56,714 bases of DNA, taken from positions 1 to 56,714 of IMG/VR virus record IMGVR_UViG_3300045741_000168. One strand, 5' to 3'. The DNA is from a virus. Its lineage: Duplodnaviria; Caudoviricetes. Under the pieces are notes generated by a model. The model saw only the letters and a list, made by a program, of their open reading frames with translations, searched no databases and was not told the DNA's origin. Shown here in pieces: positions 1,346 through 56,714 of the stretch (the first letter of the stretch is position 1; each line of letters starts with the position of its first letter). Position numbers and translations under genes: made by a program.

Positions 1346-1505
1346 CTTTACAGACACAAGTAGCTGCGGTTCCGTACTTCAAAGCAAAACCGTCGTTCAT
1401 ATAAGTTAAGTTCTTATACAGATTATGTTCTATATGTATATATTTAATCCTGTTTCTATACAGGTTCTTATGGATTCCCTAGATTTCACCGGTTCGATGG
1501 CGAAG

Positions 1506-1823
1506 CCCCCCCTACCCCCCAACATGTGAGAAGTAGAAAGAGCATCAGATTCCCTGAGTAACGACTCGGACATCCGACGACCCGCGACCGGCATTGCAGC
1601 CACCAGATTACTCTGGCTTCCATCTGCTTCGCGGGTAAGCCCCAGCAGCGTCGCGCATGGATTGCACGGTTGCCTTACGGCAGCGACTACCATGGACGCA
1701 GAAAGCAAGAAGCCCTTCTCTACTGCGCCCGGTGAGTAAGCACCGGTTGCCATTTCTGGCTGCGCATGAGAGAAGGGCCGTCCCTTGACATCACCACACT
1801 GACCACACTGCTTACTCAATGGT
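1506..1823 (-). ncRNA. Candidate structured non-coding RNA with several GNRA-capped stems and a 3' G6-TA-G7 tract
   Basis: Minus-strand stems gcccttctc/gagaagggc, gcca-GAAA-tggc, ccggtg/caccgg, gctgcc-GTAA-ggcaac, acccgcga/tcgcgggt, ccaga-GTAA-tctgg. Confidence 0.55.
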
Positions 1824-1829
1824 GATGTT

Positions 1830-1857
1830 ATTATCCACACCAGAAAACCTTTGTCAA
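1830..1857 (-). promoter_or_regulatory. Sigma70-like promoter overlapping a DnaA box
   Basis: Minus strand TTGACA (1857-1852), 16 bp, GATAAT (1835-1830); TTATCCACA at 1831-1839. Confidence 0.55.
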
Positions 1858-2072: not shown

Positions 2073-2301
2073 TCTTACGCTCTCGTTCCTCGAACAATGC
2101 TCGCTCTGATTGCCAGAAGTTGAACAATCTGGCGGCTCGCTGATACGTCATCAGATGAATCTTCCCACGCGCTACTTGCGAGAGATAACCTCGGCTAAAA
2201 CCGCACGCCTGCTGGATTTTGTTGATGTTCCAGCCCCACCGTTTCAAGTCCTCGATGATGCTGAAGGCGTCTATCTCAGACGGTATCATCTTTCGAAACA
2301 A
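2056..2301 (-). CDS. XRE/Cro-like HTH protein
   Basis: INKIQQACGFSRGYLSQVARGK helix-turn-helix pattern. Confidence 0.6.
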   Translation of the reverse strand: MFRKMIPSEIDAFSIIEDLKRWGWNINKIQQACGFSRGYLSQVARGKIHLMTYQRAARLFNFWQSERALFEERERKNGKRT

Positions 2302-3257
2302 TCTTCAGTAAGTGGTGCTGGAGCAACAATGTCACGGGTAAACGATAGTCCTTCTATCTTATCGAACATCGCTGGGGAAATGCCGAGTGCCGGTCTAGCC
2401 GTGACCACGTTCAAGCCGAATCGTATCTTGTCCCCCTTCGACACGGAGGAACAGACCCACAATGAGCGTCGTAGCTCGGGGGTTTCGCCGGGCTTTGTCC
2501 CAACTTTGGAGCCAAGAGAAGAGGCTGCATCTCGTACAGCTTGAACCATGGAATTGAATTCGGCAGGGTTCAATGCGAATCCGCTATCCGGCCCGCCATC
2601 GGAACGAGACAAGCAAATATGCTTCTCGATCATCACAGCACCGAGAGCCGTAGCTACTACTGGGGCAGTGTTCGACATTGTATGGTCGCTGAGCCCCCAT
2701 TTATAGTCCAACGAGGCAAGGCCCCGCAGGTTCATCGTAGAGGATTCCGCTGGATAGGCTGATGTGCAGGCCAACATTATGGCTTTTGCATCCGCGGCGT
2801 CGTAAGCAGCCGCTATCTCGTCGCAGTTAGCCATCCCTGTGGAGATTATTACTTCATCAGCCTTGCTCGAGGCATATCGAATCAATGGAATATCTACTAA
2901 CTCGAACGAAGCGATTTTGATTCGATATGAACCAAGGTTTATCAGGTAGTTGACTGACGCATTATCGAAGGCAGAACCAAACGGGTCCAGTCCGATGTTT
3001 TTGCAGTGATTGAAGATTATGTCGATGTCGCGCCAACTCAGGAAAGTCTCGCCGTACAAGTCATACAACGAACGCCCTTTCCAAGGCCCACGAGCCACCA
3101 GGTAGCCGCGATCCAGGCACATAGTCCCAGGTGACCAGCATTGAATTTTGAACGCATCAGCGCCCGCTAATTTAGCCGCGTCGGCCAGCTTCAGTGCGTT
3201 CGACAACTTCCCGTTGTGAGACGCCCCAAGTTCTGCGACTATGGTTGGGCTAATCAC
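2286..3257 (-). CDS. pseI: Pseudaminic acid synthase (NeuB family)
   Basis: IVAELGASHNG, KIASFELVD, ISTGMA, CTSAYP, GLSDHT, IEKH, RRSL plus C-terminal SAF/AFP-like domain. Confidence 0.9.
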   Translation of the reverse strand: MISPTIVAELGASHNGKLSNALKLADAAKLAGADAFKIQCWSPGTMCLDRGYLVARGPWKGRSLYDLYGETFLSWRDIDIIFNHCKNIGLDPFGSAFDNASVNYLINLGSYRIKIASFELVDIPLIRYASSKADEVIISTGMANCDEIAAAYDAADAKAIMLACTSAYPAESSTMNLRGLASLDYKWGLSDHTMSNTAPVVATALGAVMIEKHICLSRSDGGPDSGFALNPAEFNSMVQAVRDAASSLGSKVGTKPGETPELRRSLWVCSSVSKGDKIRFGLNVVTARPALGISPAMFDKIEGLSFTRDIVAPAPLTEDCFER

Positions 3258-3663
3258 GTCGGTATGTGGTCTGGATCAGATCGAAGCCCAACGACTTGAA
3301 TAGAATCCGACTCTTATCGTTTTGTGGCGCAATGTTCGCCAACAACGGGCCAGGATGATCCGAGATCAATTTGGTCAGCGCGGCGCGGGCATATCCCCGA
3401 CCTCGTTCCGCCACTAGCACGGCGATGCCGACTTCGTCCAATTTCGTCAGGTAGCACGTGCCGATCAGGCGACCTTCGACCTTGATTGCGTACCAAAATT
3501 TATACGGGTGCGAGTCGTGGAAAGCCTCGTGCTGTGCAAGCAAGGGCATCTTGCGGTGTGAGATAGACTCGATTGCCTCACGCTCCGACAGTAACTTCCA
3601 TGTCAGGGCGCAGGCAATCGAGCGGTCAACCGTATAAATATCGACCAGTTCGACCGGCATCAC
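3250..3663 (-). CDS. GNAT N-acetyltransferase, PseH-like
   Basis: EVGIAV...RGRGYA...LANIAPQNDKSRILFKSLGF; overlaps the pseI start. Confidence 0.75.
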   Translation of the reverse strand: MMPVELVDIYTVDRSIACALTWKLLSEREAIESISHRKMPLLAQHEAFHDSHPYKFWYAIKVEGRLIGTCYLTKLDEVGIAVLVAERGRGYARAALTKLISDHPGPLLANIAPQNDKSRILFKSLGFDLIQTTYRRD

Positions 3664-7364: not shown

Positions 7365-7982
7365 ATGCCAGCAGTTGCGAGAATAGACTGGGCGGAGGTT
7401 GAGCCGCGCTACCGCAGTGGTCGCTACACGTTTAGCGCGCTGGCATCGATGTTCGCCTGCAGCGAAACGGCGATCAGGAATCAGGCGCGAAAACGGGGAT
7501 GGACACGTGACCTTGCCCCGGCCATCAAGGCCCGTGCTGACGAGATAGTCCAGCAGCAGGCCCTTGTCCATACTTCGGAAAGTAACAGTGAATTCGAAAG
7601 CGGCGGCGGATTATGGGCCAGTGAGCTTACTGACAAAGATATCAATCAGGCCGTAGAGCAAAATGCCAAGCAAATTGCCTGCATCAAAATAGCTCACAGA
7701 AAAGATATAGGAAGACTTAGAAAAGCATTGACCAAATTGTTAAAAGAGGTTGAGCAGGACAATAGAGCATTAGAGTACAAGCTCAAAGGCGTAAAGCTCG
7801 CAGCAGATACGCTCGAAACAATAATCAAGCTCGAATCAGAGTCATGGAATTTTGACAAACACGCCGAGCCTCAAACAGAGGCGCAACAAATAGACCCAAT
7901 AGACGGCGCACGAAGATTAGCGTTCATTTTGGCGCGAGCAGAAAAGATACAAGGGCAGATAAATGTCGATACTCTACAATGA
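7365..7982 (+). CDS. Putative terminase small subunit (N-terminal HTH)
   Basis: IDWAEVEPRYRSG...SETAIRNQARKRGWTRDL; first gene of the rightward virion region. Confidence 0.6.
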   Translation: MPAVARIDWAEVEPRYRSGRYTFSALASMFACSETAIRNQARKRGWTRDLAPAIKARADEIVQQQALVHTSESNSEFESGGGLWASELTDKDINQAVEQNAKQIACIKIAHRKDIGRLRKALTKLLKEVEQDNRALEYKLKGVKLAADTLETIIKLESESWNFDKHAEPQTEAQQIDPIDGARRLAFILARAEKIQGQINVDTLQ

Positions 7983-8817: not shown

Positions 8818-8982
8818 AAGTTATCCACAGGGCTGGTCTGGGAAAATAAGGCTCAGAAACTGGAAAAGTCATGTGGAATCTCCACTTTTGGGGGTGTAAG
8901 TGTCGAAAAACACGGGTTTAGACCGAAGCAAACCGCTTGGTTGCTCAAAGGCGAGAATAATCACCAAAAGTTATCCACAGGG
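8818..8982 (+). promoter_or_regulatory. Two perfect DnaA boxes within a 15-bp direct repeat, 150 bp apart
   Basis: aagTTATCCACAggg at 8818-8832 and 8968-8982. Confidence 0.6.
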
Positions 8983-9383: not shown

Positions 9384-10697
9384 ATGGCTTTGAAGCAGAT
9401 TATCCGCACTACGGCTGGGTCGGCGTATGGCCAGGACCCTATGGGGATGCCGGTGTGGAATCGTCGTGATGGTGGTCAATTAGCTATTGGTATGTGGAAT
9501 GATGGTCTATCATACGTTTTTACAAGGACTTCTTCAGGTGTAGAGAATTACTCTTTTTTATCTGACAGGCAAACTGGTGTAACTAATTTTGCTGCACTTA
9601 TGCCATTTTTTCAGAAGATGGCTGATGTGCAGAATTCGTCAGTATTGATTCAATGCGCTGGTGATTCGATAACCTATGGTTTGTATTCGGATGGGTCATC
9701 TACTCCAAGCGATACGAATCAAGCTCCTTATGCAATGCCTGCTCAGTTGTCTAAGTTCATGAATTCCAGAATTGGAATGACTGCTACTTTCTCAATCAAT
9801 GCAGATGATGATAGAAATACTTTTGTAGGAGCATCGCAGGTTCAAAGCGTTGGCTTGGGTGGGTTTTGTAGGCAGATTACGAATACCCAAACTATCACTA
9901 TTAACTTACCAGCCTGTACGACCATCGAAGTCATATATTACGAAAGCAATGGTACCAGTGGTACTCCAACCAGCGGAAGTTGTAGTTATAACTGGGGTGG
10001 TGGAACCGTCACTGGAAACATTACTTATGCAGCAACTTTCGATACTTACAAGAAAGCGACAATTGCTGTAACCGGAACTGCGCAAACTCTAGTCCTTACA
10101 GGAACTACAGCAAACCCTGTCTATGTTGCCCAGGTTAATTGCTATACGACTGGTGGAGTCGTGGTTGGTAGAAATGGTCGCGGAGGATGGACTACTAGCG
10201 ATTTTCTGGGAACTGGAGGTAATTTTTCCACAGATGTCGCTGGACAAGCGCGTGTTCTTAAGGGATTCGGTCAGGGTTCTACGGCCTTAAATATAGTAAT
10301 GCTTGGATTCAATGATTGTGCTTTACAAGCAACAGCGGGCCAATTAACCACTACCACATTATATAAGTCTAATCTTCTTCAAATTGCCAATAGAGACACA
10401 ACAATCCCATTACTATTGGTCTCTGAACCAGATGGGCCAAATAGCGATGCCAGTCTTACGGAAAAGTATAGAGATTATTGGGCCGCTGCAAGGTCGCTGG
10501 CTACTATAGGTTCAAATATAGCTCACATGAGTATCGGAGATTTTTGGGGTAATTACACTACAGCCAATGCGAATGGATATAACGCAGGCTCTTCAGTCCA
10601 TCCATCAAGGAAAGGATATGGGAGTATTGCGAATATGCTGGCAACAGTATTGAGCCGAGCCGATATATATAGAACTCAACTACTTACCGGACAATAA
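9384..10697 (+). CDS. SGNH/GDSL hydrolase-domain protein
   Basis: AGDSITYG (block I), NGRGG, LGFND (block III), SVHPS (block V). Confidence 0.8.
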   Translation: MALKQIIRTTAGSAYGQDPMGMPVWNRRDGGQLAIGMWNDGLSYVFTRTSSGVENYSFLSDRQTGVTNFAALMPFFQKMADVQNSSVLIQCAGDSITYGLYSDGSSTPSDTNQAPYAMPAQLSKFMNSRIGMTATFSINADDDRNTFVGASQVQSVGLGGFCRQITNTQTITINLPACTTIEVIYYESNGTSGTPTSGSCSYNWGGGTVTGNITYAATFDTYKKATIAVTGTAQTLVLTGTTANPVYVAQVNCYTTGGVVVGRNGRGGWTTSDFLGTGGNFSTDVAGQARVLKGFGQGSTALNIVMLGFNDCALQATAGQLTTTTLYKSNLLQIANRDTTIPLLLVSEPDGPNSDASLTEKYRDYWAAARSLATIGSNIAHMSIGDFWGNYTTANANGYNAGSSVHPSRKGYGSIANMLATVLSRADIYRTQLLTGQ

Positions 10698-12324: not shown

Positions 12325-15039
12325 ATGGATGCTGTAGCAGAACTTCGCGCTCAACTCGCGGCGTTGAATCCGAGAGAGGAGCATAAAGTTTACAAGTCTG
12401 CACTGGAGCAGACAAGTTCCGTAAAGTGGGTTCCAAACCCAGGCCCACAAACGCAGGCTTATCTCTCAGATGCGGATTGTCTGCTATTCGGCGGCGAGCC
12501 AGGCGGAGGCAAGCAAGTTAGTATTCACTCACTTATACCTACGCCTAATGGTTGGACAACGATGGCCGAGATATGTGTCGGGCAGCAGGTAATCGACGAC
12601 ACTGGTAGGCCCTGCATGGTTGTAGCGAAGTCTAATGTTGATTGGACCGAGCAGGCCTATCGCTTAACGTTTTCAGATGGGTCTGTGATCGAGGCGGGTG
12701 CACGGCACCAGTGGGTAACGAGCACCCGTGCAGAGCGGATGCGTGCGCTCAAGTGTAATGACGAATGGCGCGCAGCGCGCCGAGCCAACCGTCCATTGCG
12801 CGGCACCGGCAAGCGACCTGATCTTGCAAAACGCAATGCCGAATCTGCTGTTTCGCAAGACTTGCCAACGTCATCTATCAAAACCACGCAGCAGATATTT
12901 GAAACGCTGAAGCGAGGCGACGGCGGACTAAACCATGCGATCGCAGTTGCTGGGTCGCTCCAACTGCCATGCGCAGAACTGCTGATTGATCCTTACGCGC
13001 TCGGTGCGTGGCTCGGGGATGGAGCATCAAAGTCTGGTCAGATTACAGGGTTAGATGAGGAGATATTCCAGCAGATTGCAAATGGTGGATACGTTGTAAC
13101 GCAACACGCCTGCCCGAAAAGCCGTGGTGTGCTAGGTATTCAAAAGCACCTGAAGCAACTCGGTGTGTTTGGCAACAAACACATTCCACCAGCCTACCTT
13201 CGTGCATCTTTCGATCAGCGTTTGGCTCTCTTACAGGGCCTGATGGACACCGATGGATATTGTGATACTCGTGGTCAGTGCGAGATTCAACTGACGCGCA
13301 AGGAGTTGATCGATGGCGTACACGAACTGCTGTCATCGCTTGGCATCAAGGCCGAGATGCGTGATGGTGACGCTACGCTATACGGGCGCGTGGTCAGCCG
13401 TAAGTGGCGACTGAAGTTCATGACTGAGCTACCCGCATTCAAGCTACCGAGAAAACTGATACGCCAGAAACGCAGCGGCTTTCGCGGTACGCATAGCGTG
13501 CGGTATATCGTTGGCTGTGAGCCGATTGCACCCATTCCGATGCAATGTATTCAGGTAGACAGCCCATCACATTGCTATTTGGTCGGCAAGACAATGATCC
13601 CGACTCATAATAGCCAATTGATACTAGGTTTAGCATTTAATGAACATAAACGTTCACTAATAATGCGGCGTCAGTATGGTGAACTTGACCGTTTAGTCGA
13701 TGATGCTCTCAAGATTCATGGAAGCAGAGAAGGATTCAACGGAAGTCCACCACCAAAGTTAAGAGTCACTGACAAACAGATTATAGAGTTTGCGGCTGCG
13801 CACCGGGTCGGTGATGAGCAGGCACAGATGGGTAAGGGCCGAGATTTGTTGGGAATCGACGAGGCCACTCACTTTGCCGAGCAGCAAGTAAGGTTCCTGA
13901 TGGGATGGAACCGAAGTGAGGACCCGAATCAGCGGGTCAGAACAGTATTGGCGACGAATCCACCTCTATCAGCCGAGGGGCTGTGGGTTTTAAAGATGTT
14001 CGCCCCATGGATCGACCCACAATATCCTAATCCTGCGAAACCAGGAGAGTTGCGTTGGGTTATCAGCGATGATGATGGTAATGATCTTTGGGTGAATGGG
14101 CCAGAAGATATAAGGACTAACTCATCAGGCAAGAAGATCAGGCCGACTTCCAGAACGTATATTCCGTCGAAAGTCTCAGATAACCCATATTACGCAGCCA
14201 GCGATTATGAGAGACAGCTCGATGCAATGCCGGAGCCGTATCGTAGCCTGCTATTAGGCGGCTTCACGACTTCGTTCAAGGACCAGCCGGCGCAGATTAT
14301 CCCGACCAAGTGGGTTCAATTAGCACAAGAACGCTGGACAAAAACCCCGCCGGTCGGGATTCCCATGTGCGTTATAGGAGTAGATGCCAGCGGTGGTGGA
14401 GCGGACCCGATGGTAATGGCCGCACGGCATGATGGCTGGTACGCGCCTCTCGTGGAGATTCAAGGAAAAGACATCCCGATGGAAAATATCGGGCCATACG
14501 GAGCCGGAAGGATTATCTCGCTTCGTCGAGACAATGCCCTTGTAGTGATCGACATGAGCGGTGGCTATGGCGGTTCTATGTACGACCATCTAAGACATAA
14601 CGGTGTCGAGGTTAAATCGTACAAGGGCGCAGAAGCAACACCGAGACGGTCGATAGATGGGAAGCTGAAGTTCGTGAACAAGCGTACAGCAGCCCTGTGG
14701 GGGATGAGGGAAGCTCTTGATCCAGGACAGCCAGGAGGTAGCCCTATCATGTTGCCGCCAGATGCCAAGATCGTAGCGGACTTGACGGCTCCCACGTTCG
14801 AGGTAGTACCAAACGGAATAAAGGCTGAAGCGAAGGAAAAGATTTGCGACCGGCTTGGAAGATCGACAGATGCGGGTGATGCTATTGTGATGTGCTGGTT
14901 CGAGGGCGGAAGAAAGGCGACGAACGTAGTTGACTGGATGGACCTGAAAAAAGGTAAAGGCGGATATTTAGAGAAAATCCCTCAAGTGTTGACCAGTGGT
15001 AGAAAACCATTGACGGCCAATCGTGCGACTCGCCACTAA
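12325..15039 (+). CDS. terL: Terminase large subunit containing an intein
   Basis: Walker A GGEPGGGK|S, Walker B LLGIDEA, ATNPP, nuclease IGVDASGGG and RSTDAGDA. Confidence 0.9.
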   Translation: MDAVAELRAQLAALNPREEHKVYKSALEQTSSVKWVPNPGPQTQAYLSDADCLLFGGEPGGGKQVSIHSLIPTPNGWTTMAEICVGQQVIDDTGRPCMVVAKSNVDWTEQAYRLTFSDGSVIEAGARHQWVTSTRAERMRALKCNDEWRAARRANRPLRGTGKRPDLAKRNAESAVSQDLPTSSIKTTQQIFETLKRGDGGLNHAIAVAGSLQLPCAELLIDPYALGAWLGDGASKSGQITGLDEEIFQQIANGGYVVTQHACPKSRGVLGIQKHLKQLGVFGNKHIPPAYLRASFDQRLALLQGLMDTDGYCDTRGQCEIQLTRKELIDGVHELLSSLGIKAEMRDGDATLYGRVVSRKWRLKFMTELPAFKLPRKLIRQKRSGFRGTHSVRYIVGCEPIAPIPMQCIQVDSPSHCYLVGKTMIPTHNSQLILGLAFNEHKRSLIMRRQYGELDRLVDDALKIHGSREGFNGSPPPKLRVTDKQIIEFAAAHRVGDEQAQMGKGRDLLGIDEATHFAEQQVRFLMGWNRSEDPNQRVRTVLATNPPLSAEGLWVLKMFAPWIDPQYPNPAKPGELRWVISDDDGNDLWVNGPEDIRTNSSGKKIRPTSRTYIPSKVSDNPYYAASDYERQLDAMPEPYRSLLLGGFTTSFKDQPAQIIPTKWVQLAQERWTKTPPVGIPMCVIGVDASGGGADPMVMAARHDGWYAPLVEIQGKDIPMENIGPYGAGRIISLRRDNALVVIDMSGGYGGSMYDHLRHNGVEVKSYKGAEATPRRSIDGKLKFVNKRTAALWGMREALDPGQPGGSPIMLPPDAKIVADLTAPTFEVVPNGIKAEAKEKICDRLGRSTDAGDAIVMCWFEGGRKATNVVDWMDLKKGKGGYLEKIPQVLTSGRKPLTANRATRH
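12514..13611 (+). mobile_element. 366-aa class 3 intein with LAGLIDADG endonuclease
   Basis: Begins Q-VSIHSLIPTPNGW; block B HQW, block F MQCIQV, block G PTHN|S; LGAWLGDG and LQGLMDTDG. Confidence 0.9.
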
Positions 15040-16068: not shown

Positions 16069-17727
16069 ATGGATGCAAAAGAGTTACATACAGTAGCAGA
16101 GGATTTATTCTCGAAAAAGATGCCTCTGAACTCGCTCCATCAGGAAATCGCGGACAACTTTTACCCTGAACGAGCAGACTTCACGCTAAAGCGGTCGATG
16201 GGGACAGACTTCGCTGCGAACATGATGAGTTCCTATCCTATGCGTTGCCGCAGGGAGCTTGGAAACCAGTTCGGCACGATGCTACGGCCAACAGCAAGAC
16301 CGTGGTTTCATACTCGCCGCAAGTACATCGAGCGGACGGGGGAAGATACGGAAACGATGGCATATCTTGAATGGTTCGAGGAAACTCAGCGCCGGGCAAT
16401 GTACGATCCAGCATCTTTGTTTACTAGAGCCTGCAAAGAGCTTGACCACGACTTGGCAGCATTCGGACAGGGGGTAATGAGCGTCGAGCTTAACGGTGAG
16501 GCCAATGGTCTTTTGTATCGTTGCTATCACTTGCGAGACGTATGCTGGCAAGAGAATGAAATGGGCAAGATTGGATTCGTAGCAAGAAAGTGGAAGCCAA
16601 CTGCACAGACAATGACTCGGGTATTTTCCAAGACAGTATCTGAACAAGTACGGAATACTGCCAAGAAAACTCCGTTTGAAGAAATGGAGGCAATGCACTT
16701 TGTCGTCGATGCTGATATGTACGATGGTAATGCGATGAAATGCCCGAAGTGGAGTATCTGGTACGATACGCTTCATAATGAGATTCTGGACGCAACCCCA
16801 ATTTGGGGTAATCATTATGTAATACCACGCTGGCAGACAGTATCTGGTGTTCAGTACAGTTATTCTCCGGCGACAGTATGTGCCCTGCCAGACGCAAGAC
16901 TTTTACAGGCAATGACATTTACGCTTCTCGAAGCTGGTGAAAAGGCTACAAGCCCACCGATCATTGCTACTCAGAACGCTGTAAGGTCTGATCTTGCTCT
17001 ATTCGCTGGTGGAGTGACTTGGGTCGATGAGGAATACGACGAAACCAAGGGCGCATCGCTAAGGCCCTTGGAGCAGGACTTCCGTGGTTTTAATTACGGT
17101 GTGGAAATGAACCGTGATACTCGGGAAATGCTCAGGTCTGCTTTCTTTCTGGACACGTTGACTATTCCTCAGCGCGCACCGGAAATGACTGCTTATGAGG
17201 TTGGGCAACGGATTCAGGAATATATCCGTAACGCACTTCCTATATTCGAGCCTATCGAAATGGAATATAATGCGGCAGTATGTAACGAAACCTTCGATCT
17301 ATTATGGAGACATGGCGCATTTGGGCAAGCGGCATCATGGCCTAAAGCCTTGAGAGGCGCTGAAATTGATTTCAGTTTCGAGTCTCCGCTGCATGATGTG
17401 ATCGAAGAACAAAAGGGCCAGAAGTTCCAGCAGATTCAGGTCTTGGTATCTGCCGCAGCCGCTCTCGATCCGACGAGCGTGTACGTGCCTAATGTAGAGG
17501 TTGCATTGAGAGACGCCCTGTTAGGTGTTGGGGTTCCTGCAAGGTGGCTCAATAGCGAGGTCGATGTGGCTAAGCAGAAGGAAAATCAGCAAGCTCAACA
17601 GGCCGCGCAGCAGAAACTCGCTGCTATGGAAAGTGCATCCACAACGGCCAAGAATATCGGTCAGAGTGGAATGATTCCGAATGAACAGGCTGGAGTTGGT
17701 CAGCGCACAAGCGGAGCCGCGCCATAA
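16069..17727 (+). CDS. Portal (head-tail connector) protein
   Basis: 552 aa; EIADNFYPERADF, PEMTAYEV, FESPL. Confidence 0.9.
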   Translation: MDAKELHTVAEDLFSKKMPLNSLHQEIADNFYPERADFTLKRSMGTDFAANMMSSYPMRCRRELGNQFGTMLRPTARPWFHTRRKYIERTGEDTETMAYLEWFEETQRRAMYDPASLFTRACKELDHDLAAFGQGVMSVELNGEANGLLYRCYHLRDVCWQENEMGKIGFVARKWKPTAQTMTRVFSKTVSEQVRNTAKKTPFEEMEAMHFVVDADMYDGNAMKCPKWSIWYDTLHNEILDATPIWGNHYVIPRWQTVSGVQYSYSPATVCALPDARLLQAMTFTLLEAGEKATSPPIIATQNAVRSDLALFAGGVTWVDEEYDETKGASLRPLEQDFRGFNYGVEMNRDTREMLRSAFFLDTLTIPQRAPEMTAYEVGQRIQEYIRNALPIFEPIEMEYNAAVCNETFDLLWRHGAFGQAASWPKALRGAEIDFSFESPLHDVIEEQKGQKFQQIQVLVSAAAALDPTSVYVPNVEVALRDALLGVGVPARWLNSEVDVAKQKENQQAQQAAQQKLAAMESASTTAKNIGQSGMIPNEQAGVGQRTSGAAP

Positions 17728-49506: not shown

Positions 49507-49764
49507 ATGGTTGACCTCAATGCTTCCGTAAAGGAAATGAAAGATGGTCGAGTAGCTATAGCAATAAAACTAGCGTCTGGCATAGAAGGTAGACTAGATG
49601 GTGCCAGTGAACGTGCTCAGGCATTGGCCCTGTTACGTCTTATATTCAATGAACTTAGGCGGCTAGGATGTAGCGATGCAGGAGTAGAAGTGTTCATTTC
49701 TGCTGTAGCAAGATCAGTATTGATCGACAAGTACGATTTGGCCACCTTGTGGGGCATAGGATGA
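49507..49764 (+). CDS. Hypothetical protein
   Basis: AGGAG RBS; first gene of the rightward operon. Confidence 0.6.
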   Translation: MVDLNASVKEMKDGRVAIAIKLASGIEGRLDGASERAQALALLRLIFNELRRLGCSDAGVEVFISAVARSVLIDKYDLATLWGIG

Positions 49765-50333
49765 AGTACATGATTACACCATTGTCAGCCGTGGTGCATG
49801 GCGTAGATGAGTCTGCGATCTTTGGTGAGTATCGTACCATCGTTAGCATCGAAGATGATGGTGACGGTATTTACATACAACTGGATCAGGATAAGGAGAA
49901 TCGGCCAGGAAGAATTAAGCTCAACGGACTCGAAGAACTACACAAAGTAGTCGAAGCAGCGACCAAGCTGATGAAGGCTCACGAGAAGCCCGCTGAGATC
50001 GTAGAGACCGATGACTACAAGTGCCCGAACTGTCCTGCTGAGAAGCTGGTGGAGTTGTACCATAAACAATTGCCTGAACTGCCTAGAATTGTAGATATGT
50101 CATCGACCAGACTGAAACATTTGGCCGCACGATGGAGACAAGTTGTTGCTGAAGAAAAGATGACGCGCCAGGAAGGTTTGAATTGGTGGGTAAAGTTCTT
50201 TGGCATGGTCAAAGAGTCCCCGTTCTTGATGGGCACCAACAATCAGAACTGGCGCGCCAGCCTGGACTGGCTCATCGTACAGGACAACTTTCTCAAGGTG
50301 ATCGAAAGGAAATATCACCGTGAAGTTTCGTGA
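49761..50333 (+). CDS. Protein with phage replication-initiator C-terminal-like domain
   Basis: CPAEKLVELYHKQLPELP...ESPFLMG...WRASLDWLI...NFLKVIERKY. Confidence 0.6.
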   Translation: MKYMITPLSAVVHGVDESAIFGEYRTIVSIEDDGDGIYIQLDQDKENRPGRIKLNGLEELHKVVEAATKLMKAHEKPAEIVETDDYKCPNCPAEKLVELYHKQLPELPRIVDMSSTRLKHLAARWRQVVAEEKMTRQEGLNWWVKFFGMVKESPFLMGTNNQNWRASLDWLIVQDNFLKVIERKYHREVS

Positions 50334-52564: not shown

Positions 52565-52988
52565 ACCGTGGCTTAGTTTCACTGTTCCTGGTGTTGCAGT
52601 TGCAAAGGGCCGAGCGCGAGTGGTCAAGGGCCACGCTTATACGCCTGAGAAAACAAAGACCTATGGCGATACTGTTGGCTGGATCGCCAGGGATGCGATG
52701 GGTAAGATCGGGCGGCAGCTTACTTTGGAGCCTGTTTATGTCGAGATCGACATTGGAGTTCCAATTCCAAAAGGCTTTGGAGTAAAACGCCGTGCGGCGG
52801 CTCTGTCTGGGGAGTTACATCCCACGCAGAAGCCTGACCTGGATAACATCATCAAATCGATCTATGACTCGATGAACAAGATCGCGTACAAGGATGATGC
52901 CCAGATCGTCAAAACGCTCGTAAAGAAGATATACGCTCCTGAACCATATGCGGAAGTGCGTGTATGGCGCATGATTGATCTAGTATGA
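52557..52988 (+). CDS. rusA: RusA Holliday junction resolvase
   Basis: KGRAR, YTPEKT, KPDLDNIIKSIYD, DDAQIV. Confidence 0.9.
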   Translation: MIKPWLSFTVPGVAVAKGRARVVKGHAYTPEKTKTYGDTVGWIARDAMGKIGRQLTLEPVYVEIDIGVPIPKGFGVKRRAAALSGELHPTQKPDLDNIIKSIYDSMNKIAYKDDAQIVKTLVKKIYAPEPYAEVRVWRMIDLV

Positions 52989-53833
52989 AGTCTGTTCTCG
53001 TAACAGGTGGCGCGGGGTTCTGGGGGTTTGGATTTGCCAGGGCCGCTCTGGACTTGCAGTGTGTTCAGCGAATCTGTATCTATAGCCGAGGTGAACACGC
53101 ACAGCATTTAATGCGACAACATCTTGGTAATAATCCATTGCTGCGATTCTTTATCGGGGATGTGCGGGATAAAGACAGGCTGCTCAGGGCCATGCACGAG
53201 GTCGATGTGGTGGTTCATGCAGCGGCGCTGAAGAGGGTGGAGGTGGGAGAGTACGACTCAGGTGAGATAGCCAAGACCAATGTTGGTGGGACACAATTTG
53301 TTATCGAAGCTGCTCAGGAAACTGGAGTACGAAAATGTGTGCTCATCAGTAGCGACAAGGCTTGTGAGCCAAGGAACTGCTACGGAGCGTCGAAGTTAAT
53401 GGCTGAGAAGCTGTTTCTGTCGGCCAATAACTCTCGCGGCCAAACTGGTCCGATATTTTCTGTCGTGAGATATGGAAATGTGGCCGGCAGCACAGGATCG
53501 GTAATCCCCACATGGTCACGTGAGCATGAGCAAGGCCGTCCAGTAAGACTTACTCACCCCGACGCCACACGATTCTGGATGACTCGTAAAGAGGCTGTAG
53601 GCTTGGTGATGCGGACAATCGACACGATGAAAGGTGGAGAACTGGTAATTCCAGAGCTACCGGCGTACAGATTGGCTGATTTGGCTACAGCAATGGGAGT
53701 GGAATATAACGTTCATGGACTGAATCCGGGAGAGAAAATGCACGAGTCGATGAAACATGGCGAGACAAGTAACGATGCGAGACGCATGACAATCAGCGAG
53801 ATTCGTGAACAACTGAAGGTGATTTATGCTTAG
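52985..53833 (+). CDS. pseB: UDP-GlcNAc 4,6-dehydratase (inverting)
   Basis: VTGGAGFWG, IGDVRD, HAAALKRV, SSDKA, YGASK, RYGNV, TRFW, GEKMHE. Confidence 0.85.
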   Translation: MKSVLVTGGAGFWGFGFARAALDLQCVQRICIYSRGEHAQHLMRQHLGNNPLLRFFIGDVRDKDRLLRAMHEVDVVVHAAALKRVEVGEYDSGEIAKTNVGGTQFVIEAAQETGVRKCVLISSDKACEPRNCYGASKLMAEKLFLSANNSRGQTGPIFSVVRYGNVAGSTGSVIPTWSREHEQGRPVRLTHPDATRFWMTRKEAVGLVMRTIDTMKGGELVIPELPAYRLADLATAMGVEYNVHGLNPGEKMHESMKHGETSNDARRMTISEIREQLKVIYA

Positions 53834-54437
53834 TCCGTTTTGCGTGGTAAAAGATTTCGAGCGCAATCTATGTGAATATACAGGTGCTAAATATGCTGTT
53901 ACCACCACTAGCTGCACACAGGCTATATTGATGGCGTGTGCATATTGGCGGTATAAAGATAAGTCATATGTATGTAAGATGCCAAGACTATCTTATGTTG
54001 GCGTTCCAGCAAGTATTTGTAATGCTGGACATGCAGTCGAATTCAGGAGTGAAAATTGGCAAGGGGAATATGAGATTTTCCCGTTACCGGTCTGGGACAG
54101 CGCGCGCCGGTTCACATCCGATATGTTCAGGCCAGGCCTGATGCAATGCGTAAGTTTTCACGTGAGCAAAATCCTGGGAGATACTCAAGGAGGCGCGATT
54201 CTGCATGATAACGACGAAGCAGATCAGTGGCTAAGACGAGCTAGATTCGATGGCCGCACAGAAGGAGTTGATCCAAAGAACGACCAGGTTCAATATCCGT
54301 CGTGGCACGCTTATATGAGTCCAGATGTTGCAGCTAGGTTGAACTGGAAGTTATCTGTTCTACCAAAGCATAATGCCGATCTACCCAGGAGTGATTACCC
54401 TGATCTGAGTACGTTGAAGGCGTTCCAGAATGACTGA
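53826..54437 (+). CDS. Short DegT/PseC-family PLP aminotransferase
   Basis: FERNLCEYTGAKYAV, DSA, SFHVSKILG..GGA; only 203 aa. Confidence 0.75.
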   Translation: MLSPFCVVKDFERNLCEYTGAKYAVTTTSCTQAILMACAYWRYKDKSYVCKMPRLSYVGVPASICNAGHAVEFRSENWQGEYEIFPLPVWDSARRFTSDMFRPGLMQCVSFHVSKILGDTQGGAILHDNDEADQWLRRARFDGRTEGVDPKNDQVQYPSWHAYMSPDVAARLNWKLSVLPKHNADLPRSDYPDLSTLKAFQND

Positions 54438-54804
54438 GCTTGATCGTCAAATCCGCACCGACATACAGATGCAGGTAGTTGCCCGTGAAAAGGAGATTCA
54501 TCTTCTGTTCAGCGAAGTGTCTGGCGACAAAATGATTCCAGCCTATACCAGTAACTTCCTGCTCAGTGCCTCGGATGCGCTTGCACTCAGCACTTTGCTG
54601 GCGGACTTGGCATATGAAATAGAAACGACTCTGAAGCCGGTTGGGAGCGCGCTCAAGGCTGAACTGATTGAGAAGCACAGGATCAAGATCACCAAGCGAA
54701 TTGAGTTGATGCTCAACAGCACCAGATTCAAAAAGACCGTCTCGAACAGCGTGTTAGCCAAGAAGATGACGGATGTCTCACTGAAAGATGTATTCGATCT
54801 ATGA
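54430..54804 (+). CDS. Hypothetical protein inside the Pse cluster
   Basis: Overlaps both neighbours. Confidence 0.65.
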   Translation: MTELDRQIRTDIQMQVVAREKEIHLLFSEVSGDKMIPAYTSNFLLSASDALALSTLLADLAYEIETTLKPVGSALKAELIEKHRIKITKRIELMLNSTRFKKTVSNSVLAKKMTDVSLKDVFDL

Positions 54805-55400
54805 ATGTTGTAGCAATAATCCCTGCGCGTGGCGGGAGTAAAAGGGTTCCACGCAAAAACGTAAGCCAGTTCCGTGGCCATCCTATGATCTGGTACGCCA
54901 TTCGTGCTGCTCAGGCCGCAAACATTTTCACGAGCATCATTGTTTCGACTGACGACCAGATGATTGCTGATGTGGCAAATTCATATGGCGCAGTAGTCTC
55001 AATGCGCGAGCCTGATGACGGCGTCAGAGGTACACAGGAACTCACAGCAGAGGTTCTGAGGGCGTGCTCCATCGATACTGGACTGGCGTGCTGTATTTAT
55101 CCTTGCGTTCCGATGTTACTGGCGACTGATCTTATCTCAGCGCATCACGAACTGGTAGATGAACATCACGATTACGTTATGTCTATAGATCGGTCTGGAG
55201 CTGACATCGGTATGTTCTATTTCGGCCATGTGGAATGCTTCCTGAAGGACGTTCCTCTGCATGGGGCTGGCACCGCTTACCAAGTGATACCAGACGAGAG
55301 GGCTATCGACATAAATACCCAGGAGGACTGGAAAAGGGCCGAACATATGTACGACTCATTTCTGCATAATCTGATGCTTGACATGAGGGGCCATGTATGA
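54801..55400 (+). CDS. pseF: CMP-pseudaminic acid synthetase (cytidylyltransferase)
   Basis: IIPARGGSKRVPRKN, VSTDD, CIYP, DINTQEDW. Confidence 0.85.
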   Translation: MNVVAIIPARGGSKRVPRKNVSQFRGHPMIWYAIRAAQAANIFTSIIVSTDDQMIADVANSYGAVVSMREPDDGVRGTQELTAEVLRACSIDTGLACCIYPCVPMLLATDLISAHHELVDEHHDYVMSIDRSGADIGMFYFGHVECFLKDVPLHGAGTAYQVIPDERAIDINTQEDWKRAEHMYDSFLHNLMLDMRGHV

Positions 55401-55984
55401 GCAACACTGAAGGGTTCTGGAGCGGTGAATTCGGAGACGACTACCACAAGCGCAATCGTGTCGATTACCGGGACCGTTTACCGTTCTGGCAATCTGCTGT
55501 CCAGTACACAGAGCCGAGAAGCGTGCTGGAGATCGGTTGCGGTCCAGGCTGGAATCTTCTGGCTCTGAGAGAGGTGCAACCGACGCTCGATCTATACGGT
55601 ATAGAGATCAACGAAGGTGCGGTAGCAGAGGCACGTAGCAATAACCTGAAGGTCGATCATGGGACCTTCGACACCGCCAAAGCAATGTACGAACCTGGAG
55701 CCGTCGATCTTGTGTTCACCAGCGGGGTGCTGATCCACGTTGCGCCGGATGATCTTGATCGCTGCATGAACGCGATGATCGAGATAAGTGGACGATATGT
55801 CATGGCTATCGAGTACGACGCTGACCGGGAAGTTCCCCGTGTTTACAGAGGCCACGATGACAAGCTATGGGCCAGGCCATACGGCAAGCTCCTGGAGAAG
55901 AAGGGGCTGAAACTGTTGTCTGAAGGCATGGCAGGTGGCTGGGAAAGTGCGACCTATTACTTACTGGAGAAGGCACAAACATGA
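55397..55984 (+). CDS. Pseudaminic-acid-biosynthesis-associated methyltransferase
   Basis: FWSGEFGDDYHKRN, LEIGCG, FTSGVLIH, YRGH..KLW. Confidence 0.85.
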   Translation: MSNTEGFWSGEFGDDYHKRNRVDYRDRLPFWQSAVQYTEPRSVLEIGCGPGWNLLALREVQPTLDLYGIEINEGAVAEARSNNLKVDHGTFDTAKAMYEPGAVDLVFTSGVLIHVAPDDLDRCMNAMIEISGRYVMAIEYDADREVPRVYRGHDDKLWARPYGKLLEKKGLKLLSEGMAGGWESATYYLLEKAQT

Positions 55985-56714
55985 TTCGTTGTAAAACATG
56001 CGTGCTTCCTGATTCCAGACCCGACACTCCTTTCATAGATGGTGAGTGCTCGGCCTGTATCAGCTACCGCAAGCGGCCAATAATAGATTGGGACGAGCGC
56101 AAGCGGCAGCTGCTGGCTTTGCTGGGCCGACACGGATTCAGGTGTATTGTTCCAAGTTCCGGCGGTAAGGACTCTACAGCGCAGGTCATAAAACTTCAGG
56201 AGTTGGGGTGTGATGTAACGGTTGTGACTGCTAGGACATGTCAACTTACATCGGTCGGCAGAGAAAACATCGACAATTTGGCGCGGTACGCCAGGACAAT
56301 CGAGGTCGTACCAAATATGACTGTCAGGGCAAAGCTCAATCGACTTGGGCTTGAACTGGTTGGGGATATATCGTGGCCTGAACATTCTGCAATCTTCACC
56401 ACGCCATTCAAGATGTCAGTGGCATTGGGCATCCCGCTTCTGTGGTACGGAGAAAACCCGCAGAACCAGTACGGCGGCCCTATGGGAAGCGAAGAAGCGA
56501 TGCAGATGACCCAACGCTGGGTCAGTGAGTTCGGTGGCTTCCTGGGACTACGAACCACAGATGTGGTCGGCATGGAAGGGATTACAGCCACAGACATGCT
56601 GGACTACCAGATGCCGAGAGGTGACGATTTGTCACGGGTTGGGACCGAGGCTCATTTTCTCGGCCAATATCTGCCCTGGGACTCTAACGAAAACGCCATG
56701 ATCGCAGCAAGGCA
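55981..56714 (+). CDS. N-acetyl sugar amidotransferase (PseA/WbpG-like), 5' part; about 348 aa when joined to 1-500
   Basis: CKTCVLPDSRP..C..C, PP-loop SSGGKDS, YGENP..YGG. Confidence 0.85.
   Translation, partial: MIRCKTCVLPDSRPDTPFIDGECSACISYRKRPIIDWDERKRQLLALLGRHGFRCIVPSSGGKDSTAQVIKLQELGCDVTVVTARTCQLTSVGRENIDNLARYARTIEVVPNMTVRAKLNRLGLELVGDISWPEHSAIFTTPFKMSVALGIPLLWYGENPQNQYGGPMGSEEAMQMTQRWVSEFGGFLGLRTTDVVGMEGITATDMLDYQMPRGDDLSRVGTEAHFLGQYLPWDSNENAMIAAR
56528..56714. repeat. Terminal direct repeat, copy 2
   Basis: Matches bases 1-187. Confidence 0.95.

Follow-up and report, generated by a model that had tools for sequence, protein, structure and literature searches.

A probable structured RNA gene of a tailed phage and its relatives in phage and metagenomic contigs

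In the c4 RNAs of phages P1 and P7 and in the CI RNA of P4, the repeats that flank the RNA and the complementary segments within it vary in step from one heteroimmune phage to another; the details for P1 and P7 are said to have been given by Citron and Schuster in 1990. In the ColE1 RNA II primer and in the mitochondrial conserved sequence block II (CSB II, G6AG8), a folded transcript places G runs ahead of easily melted DNA. Comparative genomics has, in addition, brought to light orphan phage-associated structured RNA motifs, such as manA, wcaG and STAXI, as is set out in the available part of one such survey (PMC2864571). Here we consider a locus that invites comparison with all of these, namely, the minus strand from about position 1823 to position 1473 of a tailed-phage genome, IMG/VR virus record IMGVR_UViG_3300045741_000168; in what follows, the window is the whole stretch analysed, that is, the entire record of 56,714 bases, with a completeness rating of 100%. 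The original prediction, made from the letters of this DNA, had read the locus as a promoter-driven structured RNA that ends in a G-rich tract and AT-rich DNA, and had offered two explanations, an RNA-primed (R-loop) replication origin or an undescribed class of noncoding RNA. We argue for the latter: the RNA belongs, on comparative sequence evidence, to an uncatalogued family of structured RNAs of phage and metagenomic contigs, and it is very probably a new structured noncoding RNA that acts as RNA.

The RNA family and its shared fold

When considering the possibility of a new RNA class, it is important to see whether the RNA is already catalogued. A scan of the whole window at the gathering thresholds of Rfam 15 gave 0 matches, and scans by expectation value (E) of positions 1200-2100, of 14 family loci and of loci L173 and L175 returned no family, only scattered hits at chance level (CRISPR-DR40 at E 2.2, Twister-P5 at E 2, STnc210, snoRNAs), plus a genuine transfer RNA (tRNA) in L226. 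The Rfam search that had been proposed as a check accordingly placed neither the window nor the family loci in any known family. No match to positions 1300-1950 was found by blastn among phage records, and a neighbouring 72-aa protein, tried as a search anchor, was abandoned after it led to two weak loci, both without the RNA. The exact 15-mer of the G tract is common by chance (at least 120 viral loci), and among the loci compared only L006 shared more with the window, namely 142 nt at 69% identity; the alignment of the two displays conserved blocks and compensatory changes in stems, for example CCAGA-GUAA-UCUGG versus CGCGA-GCAA-UCGCG. Further members were recovered by pattern scans, built from the conserved blocks, of viral contigs, metagenomes and a genome collection. 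The scan of the genome collection yielded 10 loci, of which nine were chance occurrences or other repeats, whereas the remaining one, L157, equals a contig also filed as viral both in length (37,887 bp) and in the sequence of its RNA. The family thus assembled comprises 119 locus rows, which reduce to 37 distinct sequences and to 20 clusters at 85% identity; all relatives come from phage-like or metagenomic contigs, and the GC content of the RNA among the phage members ranges from 33% to 72%. Literature text searches for GGGGGGTAGGGGGG, GGGGGGUAGGGGGG, AAUCUAGGG, AACUCAGGG and UGCAAUGCCGG found no printed description, text searches being blind to motifs filed under unfamiliar names. As far as Rfam 15 and these searches can tell, both the family and the repeat rule described below are new. 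A different element, also caught by the pattern search, in the metagenome contigs L167-L169, L187, L189, L190 and L199, consists of perfect palindromes G7TAG8-CTC-C7TAC9, two or three per contig, which are bordered by runs of T and A and by TCCCTAGGGA repeat arrays.

The case for an RNA rests in part on covariation, which the original prediction had also named as a check. A covariance model (R1), built from ten sequences of the window type (type A), gives type A members 125-153 bits and the more distant ones 20-45 bits. In an alignment of 22 distinct sequences, fitted to this model, 82.0% of the cells are paired, as compared to 71.3 +/- 0.7 in shuffles, and two-sided (compensatory) changes are found in 32 of the 43 pairs, as compared to 16.2 +/- 2.2 in shuffles, with none of 500 shuffles reaching 32. 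When the partners were slid by 1-3 columns, at most 14 pairs showed two-sided changes.

The single-sequence fold points in the same direction. The minimum free energy (MFE) of positions 1490-1830 is -157.4 kcal/mol for the minus strand (z -6.24; equalled by none of 100 shuffles) versus -120.9 kcal/mol (z -3.38) for the plus strand, and the three minus-strand GNRA loops that had been noticed earlier (GAAA at 1756-1753, GUAA at 1678-1675 and GUAA at 1611-1608) each close a hairpin of the MFE fold. From the 5' end, this fold contains a hairpin (1788-1828) that is a single-sequence prediction only, a three-way-junction domain (1709-1782) that carries the GAAA loop (by eye, the L006-type relatives have a junction domain at the same place), and a hairpin domain (1639-1697) that carries the first GUAA loop and overlaps, with its 3' part, the helix Pd.

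The family core that follows is an H-type pseudoknot formed by the helices Pd and Pa, present both in type A and in type B (L221, L240, L246, L230), and a minimal form of it is, by eye, seemingly kept in L165 and L170. Pd (1624-1648, minus strand, as for all elements of the RNA) pairs CUGCU (1648-1644) with AGCAG (1628-1624); all five pairs are possible in the window, L181, L173, L175, L174 and L172, with two-sided changes such as CCUCC/GGAGG in L175 and CUGUC/GACAG in L174. Pa (1581-1635) pairs CCCGCG (1635-1630) with CGCGGG (1586-1581), reads CCUAGG/CCUAGG in L181 and, as helix 1 of the alignment, shows two-sided changes in five of its six pairs, with 90.5% of the cells paired. Enclosed by Pa are the hairpin Pb (1602-1617), with the second GUAA loop, which is a GNRA loop in all type A lineages read (GUAA, GAAA, GUGA, GCAA), and the hairpin Pc (1590-1601), with the conserved loop UGCAAU (1598-1593), which is UGCAAU or UGCAAA in types A and B; Pc (helix 3) is 100% paired, with two-sided changes in 3 of 3 pairs. 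Further 3' lie the hairpins Pe (1545-1577) and Pf (1505-1543), considered in the next section, a small and weakly supported linker hairpin (1487-1499; helix 8 of the alignment, 62% paired) and the second copy of a direct repeat (1473-1485).

An open reading frame (ORF) of 136 codons with a GTG start runs over the RNA on the same strand (1430-1840), so that a protein gene with an incidental RNA structure has to be considered. Beyond the open frame itself, little speaks for a protein: it matches no family in Pfam or NCBIfam and has no tblastn relative in viral contigs, the relatives contain only short, non-homologous frames over the region, and the window and L139 differ in the frame in which the G tract is read. 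When the window is compared with five relatives, the substitutions ignore the codon phase (97, 95 and 102 mismatches at the three codon positions, p 0.88), which favours an RNA; conservation that follows the codons of this ORF had been named in the original prediction as a refuting observation. The ORF is not a gene, and we give the protein-gene explanation next to no chance. The earlier suggestion of an undescribed noncoding RNA class is, by comparison, well borne out by the lack of an Rfam match, the 20 clusters of relatives, the covariation and the missing codon pattern, and positions 1430-1840 would be best annotated as a noncoding RNA gene, neither as a hypothetical protein nor as an origin.

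The transcript seems to have a promoter of its own. The TTGACA/GATAAT promoter claimed for the minus strand is indeed there: a sigma-70-type element (1830-1857) with TTGACA at 1857-1852, a 16-nt spacer and GATAAT at 1835-1830, matching the consensus at 11 of 12 positions, from which transcription is predicted to start near 1823. Of 22 representatives of the family, 8 carry an exact TTGACA upstream on the RNA strand, as compared to 2 on the opposite strand, and a full promoter that matches at 10 or more of 12 positions is present in only 4. The minus strand from 1823 to at least 1473 is probably a noncoding RNA gene, about 350 nt long and served by a host-type promoter of its own.

The G tract and the flanking repeats

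The G6-TA-G7 tract on which the R-loop proposal was built is where it had been reported, at 1520-1506 (GGGGGGTAGGGGGGG), and is unique, GGGGGNNGGGGG occurring once in the window as compared to 0.06 expected. This tract is one strand of the hairpin Pf, in which the pyrimidine tract CUCUUUCUACUUCUC (1542-1528) is paired with GGGGGGUAGGGGGGG (1520-1506), that is, CUCUUUC-UA-CUUCUC with GGGGGG-UA-GGGGGGG. Half of these pairs are G.U and, therefore, the hairpin can form only in the RNA of this strand. As helix 7 of the alignment, Pf is 91.4% paired and shows two-sided changes in 12 of 16 pairs. A scan that demanded only one run of five G revealed how the tract varies between clusters (G5UAG5, G5UAAG5, G6AAAG6, G3UAG5, G3UG6, G3CUG6), with two G runs 1-3 nt apart in all 20 of them. 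The partner follows these changes, as in L239 (CCUCCC-UU-CCUCCC with G6AAAG6) and L246 (CUUCCCAUUC with GGGUGGGGGG), which indicates that selection acts on the RNA hairpin. The G tract is, accordingly, a strand of a covarying RNA hairpin and, as such, no evidence of a replication origin.

It is nevertheless worth asking how much of the origin scenario survives. In that scenario, the G runs would form a persistent hybrid or a DNA:RNA G-quadruplex, and the processed RNA would prime synthesis into the AT-rich DNA. The elements are, indeed, in the right order in the window: promoter, structured RNA, two G runs and then an AT-rich stretch, which is as AT-rich as had been described, with 26-29% GC in 70-nt windows between 1375 and 1479 versus 51.9% for 1001-2000. 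This AT-rich DNA contains, within 78 bp (1395-1472), four minus-strand copies of TATAnGAAC, which would suit an origin, as would the layout of two closely spaced G runs in all clusters, similar to that of mitochondrial CSB II, and the location of the RNA in early or DNA-metabolism regions of the relatives. However, the G runs form the 3' side of a hairpin that is conserved and has undergone compensatory changes, so that selection is on RNA pairing, and the tract itself varies between clusters (for example, G5UAG5, G6AAAG6 and G3UG6). The downstream AT-rich DNA is not conserved: it follows the RNA in the window and in L255, whereas in L259, L256 and L173 an ORF starts within 5-8 nt, in L259 and L256 directly past the second repeat copy and without AT-rich DNA. 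The phage also encodes an O-like/DnaD-like replication-initiation protein (49749-50333; phrog_5810, E 1.2e-24). The earlier remark that there is no primase or helicase gene holds in that none was found in this analysis either. Finally, the origin model has no role for the repeat rule.

The DnaA box that had been seen to overlap the promoter is also real, with a perfect consensus TTATCCACA at 1831-1839 of the plus strand, over the -10 hexamer. As support for an origin it carries little weight: no such box was seen in the promoter-like strings of the seven relatives in which TTGACA is exact, and DnaA boxes with at most one mismatch number 10 in the window versus 12.8 +/- 3.9 in shuffles, that is, are not above chance. 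The overlap with the -10 hexamer is probably incidental. Two perfect boxes lie elsewhere in the window, at 8821-8829 and 8971-8979 of the plus strand, 150 bp apart and within structural genes, with one-mismatch copies at 9400 and 10224. All in all, the R-loop origin is unsupported and, in our estimate, very unlikely. The TATAnGAAC copies could serve for protein binding at the place where two convergent units meet; the same AT-rich spacer also contains a hairpin, CCUGUAUAGAAACAGG (1464-1449), which is terminator-like on the plus strand.

A second regularity of the family is a pair of direct repeats that bracket Pf, copy 1 being AA-CUC-A-GGG-x and copy 2 AA-UCU-A-GGG-x, where the triplets CUC and UCU were fixed by the search patterns, so that only the tails x are an independent observation. 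The tail, 3-8 nt long, is the same in both copies within a genome and differs between clusters: it is AAUC in the window and, for example, UCAGG, UGAAG, AAGAGU, UGGUU, UUAGGA or GAAAAA elsewhere. The length shared by the two copies, including AGGG, is 7-12 in 18 of the 20 clusters, 6 in one and 4-5 in one, and the spacing between them (56-111 nt) is neither conserved nor a multiple of three. In the window, copy 1 is ACUC-A-GGG-AAUC (1559-1548) and copy 2 is AAUCU-A-GGG-AAUC (1473-1485), with AGGGAAUC the same in both. Type A members use copy 1 as the 3' strand of Pe, which reads in the window UCGGAU-G-UCC-GAGU (the "anti" strand), loop CGUU, ACUC-A-GGG-A-AUCUGA; the inner pairs of Pe are conserved, the outer pairs are variable, and the upstream partner changes together with x. 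The complement of GGG-x is found upstream of copy 1 in the window and L174 (and, by eye, in L240), and between the copies in L244, L221, L230, L234, L246 and L178. Trans targets of the repeat were sought in the window genome, and only the two copies themselves stand out (8 matches versus 10.3 expected).

Several ideas on the repeats were tried and rejected. A repeat gene, with a unit length that is a multiple of three, fails on the mixed remainders, and a short ORF from copy 1 to a UAG in the G tract is present in 6 of 22 representatives and absent from the window. Docking of copy 2 (AUCUAG) on AGAU/YUAGAU of the core, with at least six contiguous pairs, is possible in 7 of 22 representatives; shuffles reach as much in 26-39% of cases, so that this contact is unsupported.

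Repeats that combine conserved and genome-specific parts resemble iterons or operator sets, and genes for HNH endonucleases lie beside the element in 4 of 16 contexts, so that an element acting at the DNA level could be envisaged, with the two direct repeats around a hairpin serving as binding sites, iterons, or a site of recombination or slippage. Yet Pf, half of whose pairs are G.U, would form no hairpin in DNA or in the other strand, the helices covary as RNA pairs, including changes from G-C to G-U, and copy 1 pairs, through its tail x, with an RNA partner. We consider such a DNA element highly improbable.

Taken together, the two identical GGG-x targets and the strand complementary to them, present in a subset of the lineages, suggest a two-state gate operating at the RNA level, in which one strand would choose between two identical partners. 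Either Pe or the pyrimidine tract might hold copy 1, with copy 2 being free or captured, and the gate would then determine the state of what follows the RNA on its 3' side. In two lineages linked to HNH genes (L259 and L256), the exposed 3' boundary would be a ribosome-binding site; in the window, the RNA would stand alone, with nothing following copy 2.

Several observations weigh against this scenario. When copy 1 was blocked in single-sequence folds, copy 2 paired with the "anti" strand in 0 of 9 sequences, and the blocking cost 3.2-9.3 kcal/mol, so that the folds do not bear out bistability. Many other lineages gave numerous weak complementary hits or none, which confines the case for a single complementary strand to a subset. 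The sequences ACUCAGGG and AAUCUAGGG are invariant even where they are paired, and therefore point to a sequence-specific partner or chemistry that lies outside the gate model. The downstream genes are not conserved and, because a convergent gene comes next in 5 of 16 contexts, among them the window, the RNA cannot everywhere be a simple leader. As to the family itself, every pattern scan demanded ACTCAGGG and/or the G run and/or AATCTAGGG; the constancy of these motifs is thus partly by construction, members without them being unsampled. Similarly, the 22-sequence alignment leans towards the model to which it was fitted; the slid controls and the direct readings of L006 and of the Pf and Pd variants agree with the covariation result. 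With all this in mind, we lean, by a small distance, towards a noncoding RNA of a new family with an RNA-level two-state gate as the best explanation as a whole; the gate mechanism, taken on its own, is offered tentatively and appears somewhat less probable than its opposite.

The same repeats would also suit a self-processing unit, in which one guide strand would recognize both N-A-GGG-x copies as cleavage sites. The cut would be made by a new ribozyme or by a host RNase that attacks the guide:target helix, with the release of the hairpin RNA of 56-111 nt between the two sites. Both copies, indeed, have the invariant 9-mer, an unpaired A between two helices and a tail that matches a single complementary strand; the core is a pseudoknot with invariant unpaired nucleotides; and the occurrence in phages with RNAs of such different GC content suits a chemistry independent of the host. 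Against this stand the lack of a match to any known ribozyme model and the unit length, which is not conserved. The Twister-P5 hit (RF02684) was discarded as a candidate, since it reached 15.5 bits in relation to a threshold of 37.6, in the window only, and was absent in L173 and L175. Self-processing, which would account for the invariant N-A-GGG sites and the tail common to both copies, is, in our view, unlikely. More broadly, the 3' module, consisting of the guide strand, the two GGG-x targets, each after an invariant AA-YYY-A, and the G.U-rich hairpin with two G runs, might represent a new RNA device, either a self-cleaving or self-excising ribozyme class that releases a hairpin RNA or a co-transcriptional switch by which the G runs are released and can nucleate an R-loop or hybrid G-quadruplex. 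Such a device seems rather unlikely; if it were true, the genome-specific "address" x would keep the device of each phage private.

Neighbouring genes and genome setting

In six relatives scanned against PHROG, the neighbours of the RNA are early, recombination and DNA-modification genes (Erf, SSB, RecE-like, RusA-like, methyltransferases). The only neighbour protein cluster that recurs in the 16 contexts is an HNH endonuclease (phrog_144), found in the four contexts mentioned above, downstream of the RNA in three and upstream in one; these HNH genes, directly beside the RNA in L255/L265, L259, L256 and L263, are homologous. In L259 and L256, the HNH gene is the one that starts 5-8 nt past copy 2, so that copy 2 is its ribosome-binding site. 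A riboswitch or another cis-regulatory leader was considered and rejected: the RNA holds no consistent position upstream of one gene class, the HNH genes alone recurring, on either side. A dedicated leader accounts for this adjacency less well than a selfish, homing-type gene that inserts next to a conserved RNA gene. Two AT-rich members have the RNA gene directly after a tRNA gene (L226, 174-246, 37.9 bits) or a tRNA-like 3' end recognized by eye (L228), followed by a terminator; in these members, the RNA gene is, therefore, located among genes for stable RNAs.

As for the window, Pfam, PHROG and NCBIfam scans identify a tailed phage, with a small terminase (7365-7982), a large terminase of 904 aa (12325-15039), a T7-type head-tail connector (16069-17727), tail and lysis genes on the plus strand, and lambdoid-style early genes for the O-like/DnaD-like initiator, NinB, RusA and a Gam-like protein. 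The large terminase contains a LAGLIDADG/Hom_end domain at aa 293-365, an arrangement as in an intein. The O-like initiator gene is about 8 kb from the RNA locus, counted across the record ends; iterons were sought in its region, and nothing clear was found. A scan of the window for tRNA and transfer-messenger RNA genes found 0 genes.

The RNA locus is the meeting point of two units: a plus-strand sugar operon, the last gene of which, WbuZ/HisF-like, ends at 1345, and the end of the minus-strand early operon, the last ORF of which occupies 2072-1854. The sugar genes, of the pseudaminic-acid type, run over the record ends (52985-56712 and 3-1345 on the plus strand, with 2286-3663 on the minus strand) and encode a nonulosonic acid pathway with PseB, PseF, a methyltransferase, the WbuX amidotransferase, WbuZ/HisF-like, PseI and GNAT proteins; a PseC-like gene is in two frames (53826-54437 and 54430-54804). 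The WbuX gene is interrupted by the record ends (55981-56712 and 3-500), and its two pieces cover overlapping parts of the profile (positions 1-248 and 202-343); the record is, therefore, either a permuted circle or has overlapping ends. The frames as written do not join exactly at the record ends.

Comparison with described systems

Phage-encoded structured RNAs of known function are few, and the present family is found in at least 20 clusters of uncultured phages, with a core of about 180 nt that is a defined small object for biochemistry. The three-way relation, in which two identical targets and a strand complementary to them change together between genomes, is unusual and, if the tail x works as an address, would provide a new example of RNA-encoded self/non-self specificity in phages.

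How does the RNA compare with the systems already described? Like manA, wcaG and STAXI, it is defined by covariation and comes mainly from phage or metagenomic DNA, as far as these motifs are characterized in the available part of the survey (PMC2864571), although their models do not match it; a single complementary strand serving two identical targets does not figure among the features that this part of the survey (PMC2864571) gives for them. With the T4-type structured leaders that restrain free-standing homing-endonuclease genes it shares, in L259 and L256, an RNA that ends in the HNH ribosome-binding site; unlike such leaders, it adjoins an HNH gene in only 4 of 16 contexts, on either side.

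The resemblance to ColE1 RNA II and CSB II lies in a promoter-driven, G-rich transcript and, as in CSB II, in two G runs 1-3 nt apart. In the present family, however, the G runs are held in a conserved, covarying hairpin, the AT-rich DNA downstream is not conserved and, in contrast to a ColE1-type origin, the replicon encodes its own initiator protein.

An analogy, in logic only, is offered by the C4 antisense RNA (RF01695; the c4-a1b1 motif). The differences are substantial: the C4 model matches neither the window, at the gathering threshold or with E up to 10, nor the 16 family loci, at E limits of 5 or 10; the RNA described here is three to five times larger and has a pseudoknotted core and a G.U-rich hairpin; and, in type A, both repeat copies lie 3' of the complementary strand, with no gene following in 5 of 16 contexts. 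Nevertheless, in both cases a phage encodes a promoter-driven, small structured RNA that is flanked by direct repeats complementary to an internal segment, the sequences of the repeats differ between phages and change together and, in some lineages, the downstream copy overlaps a ribosome-binding site.

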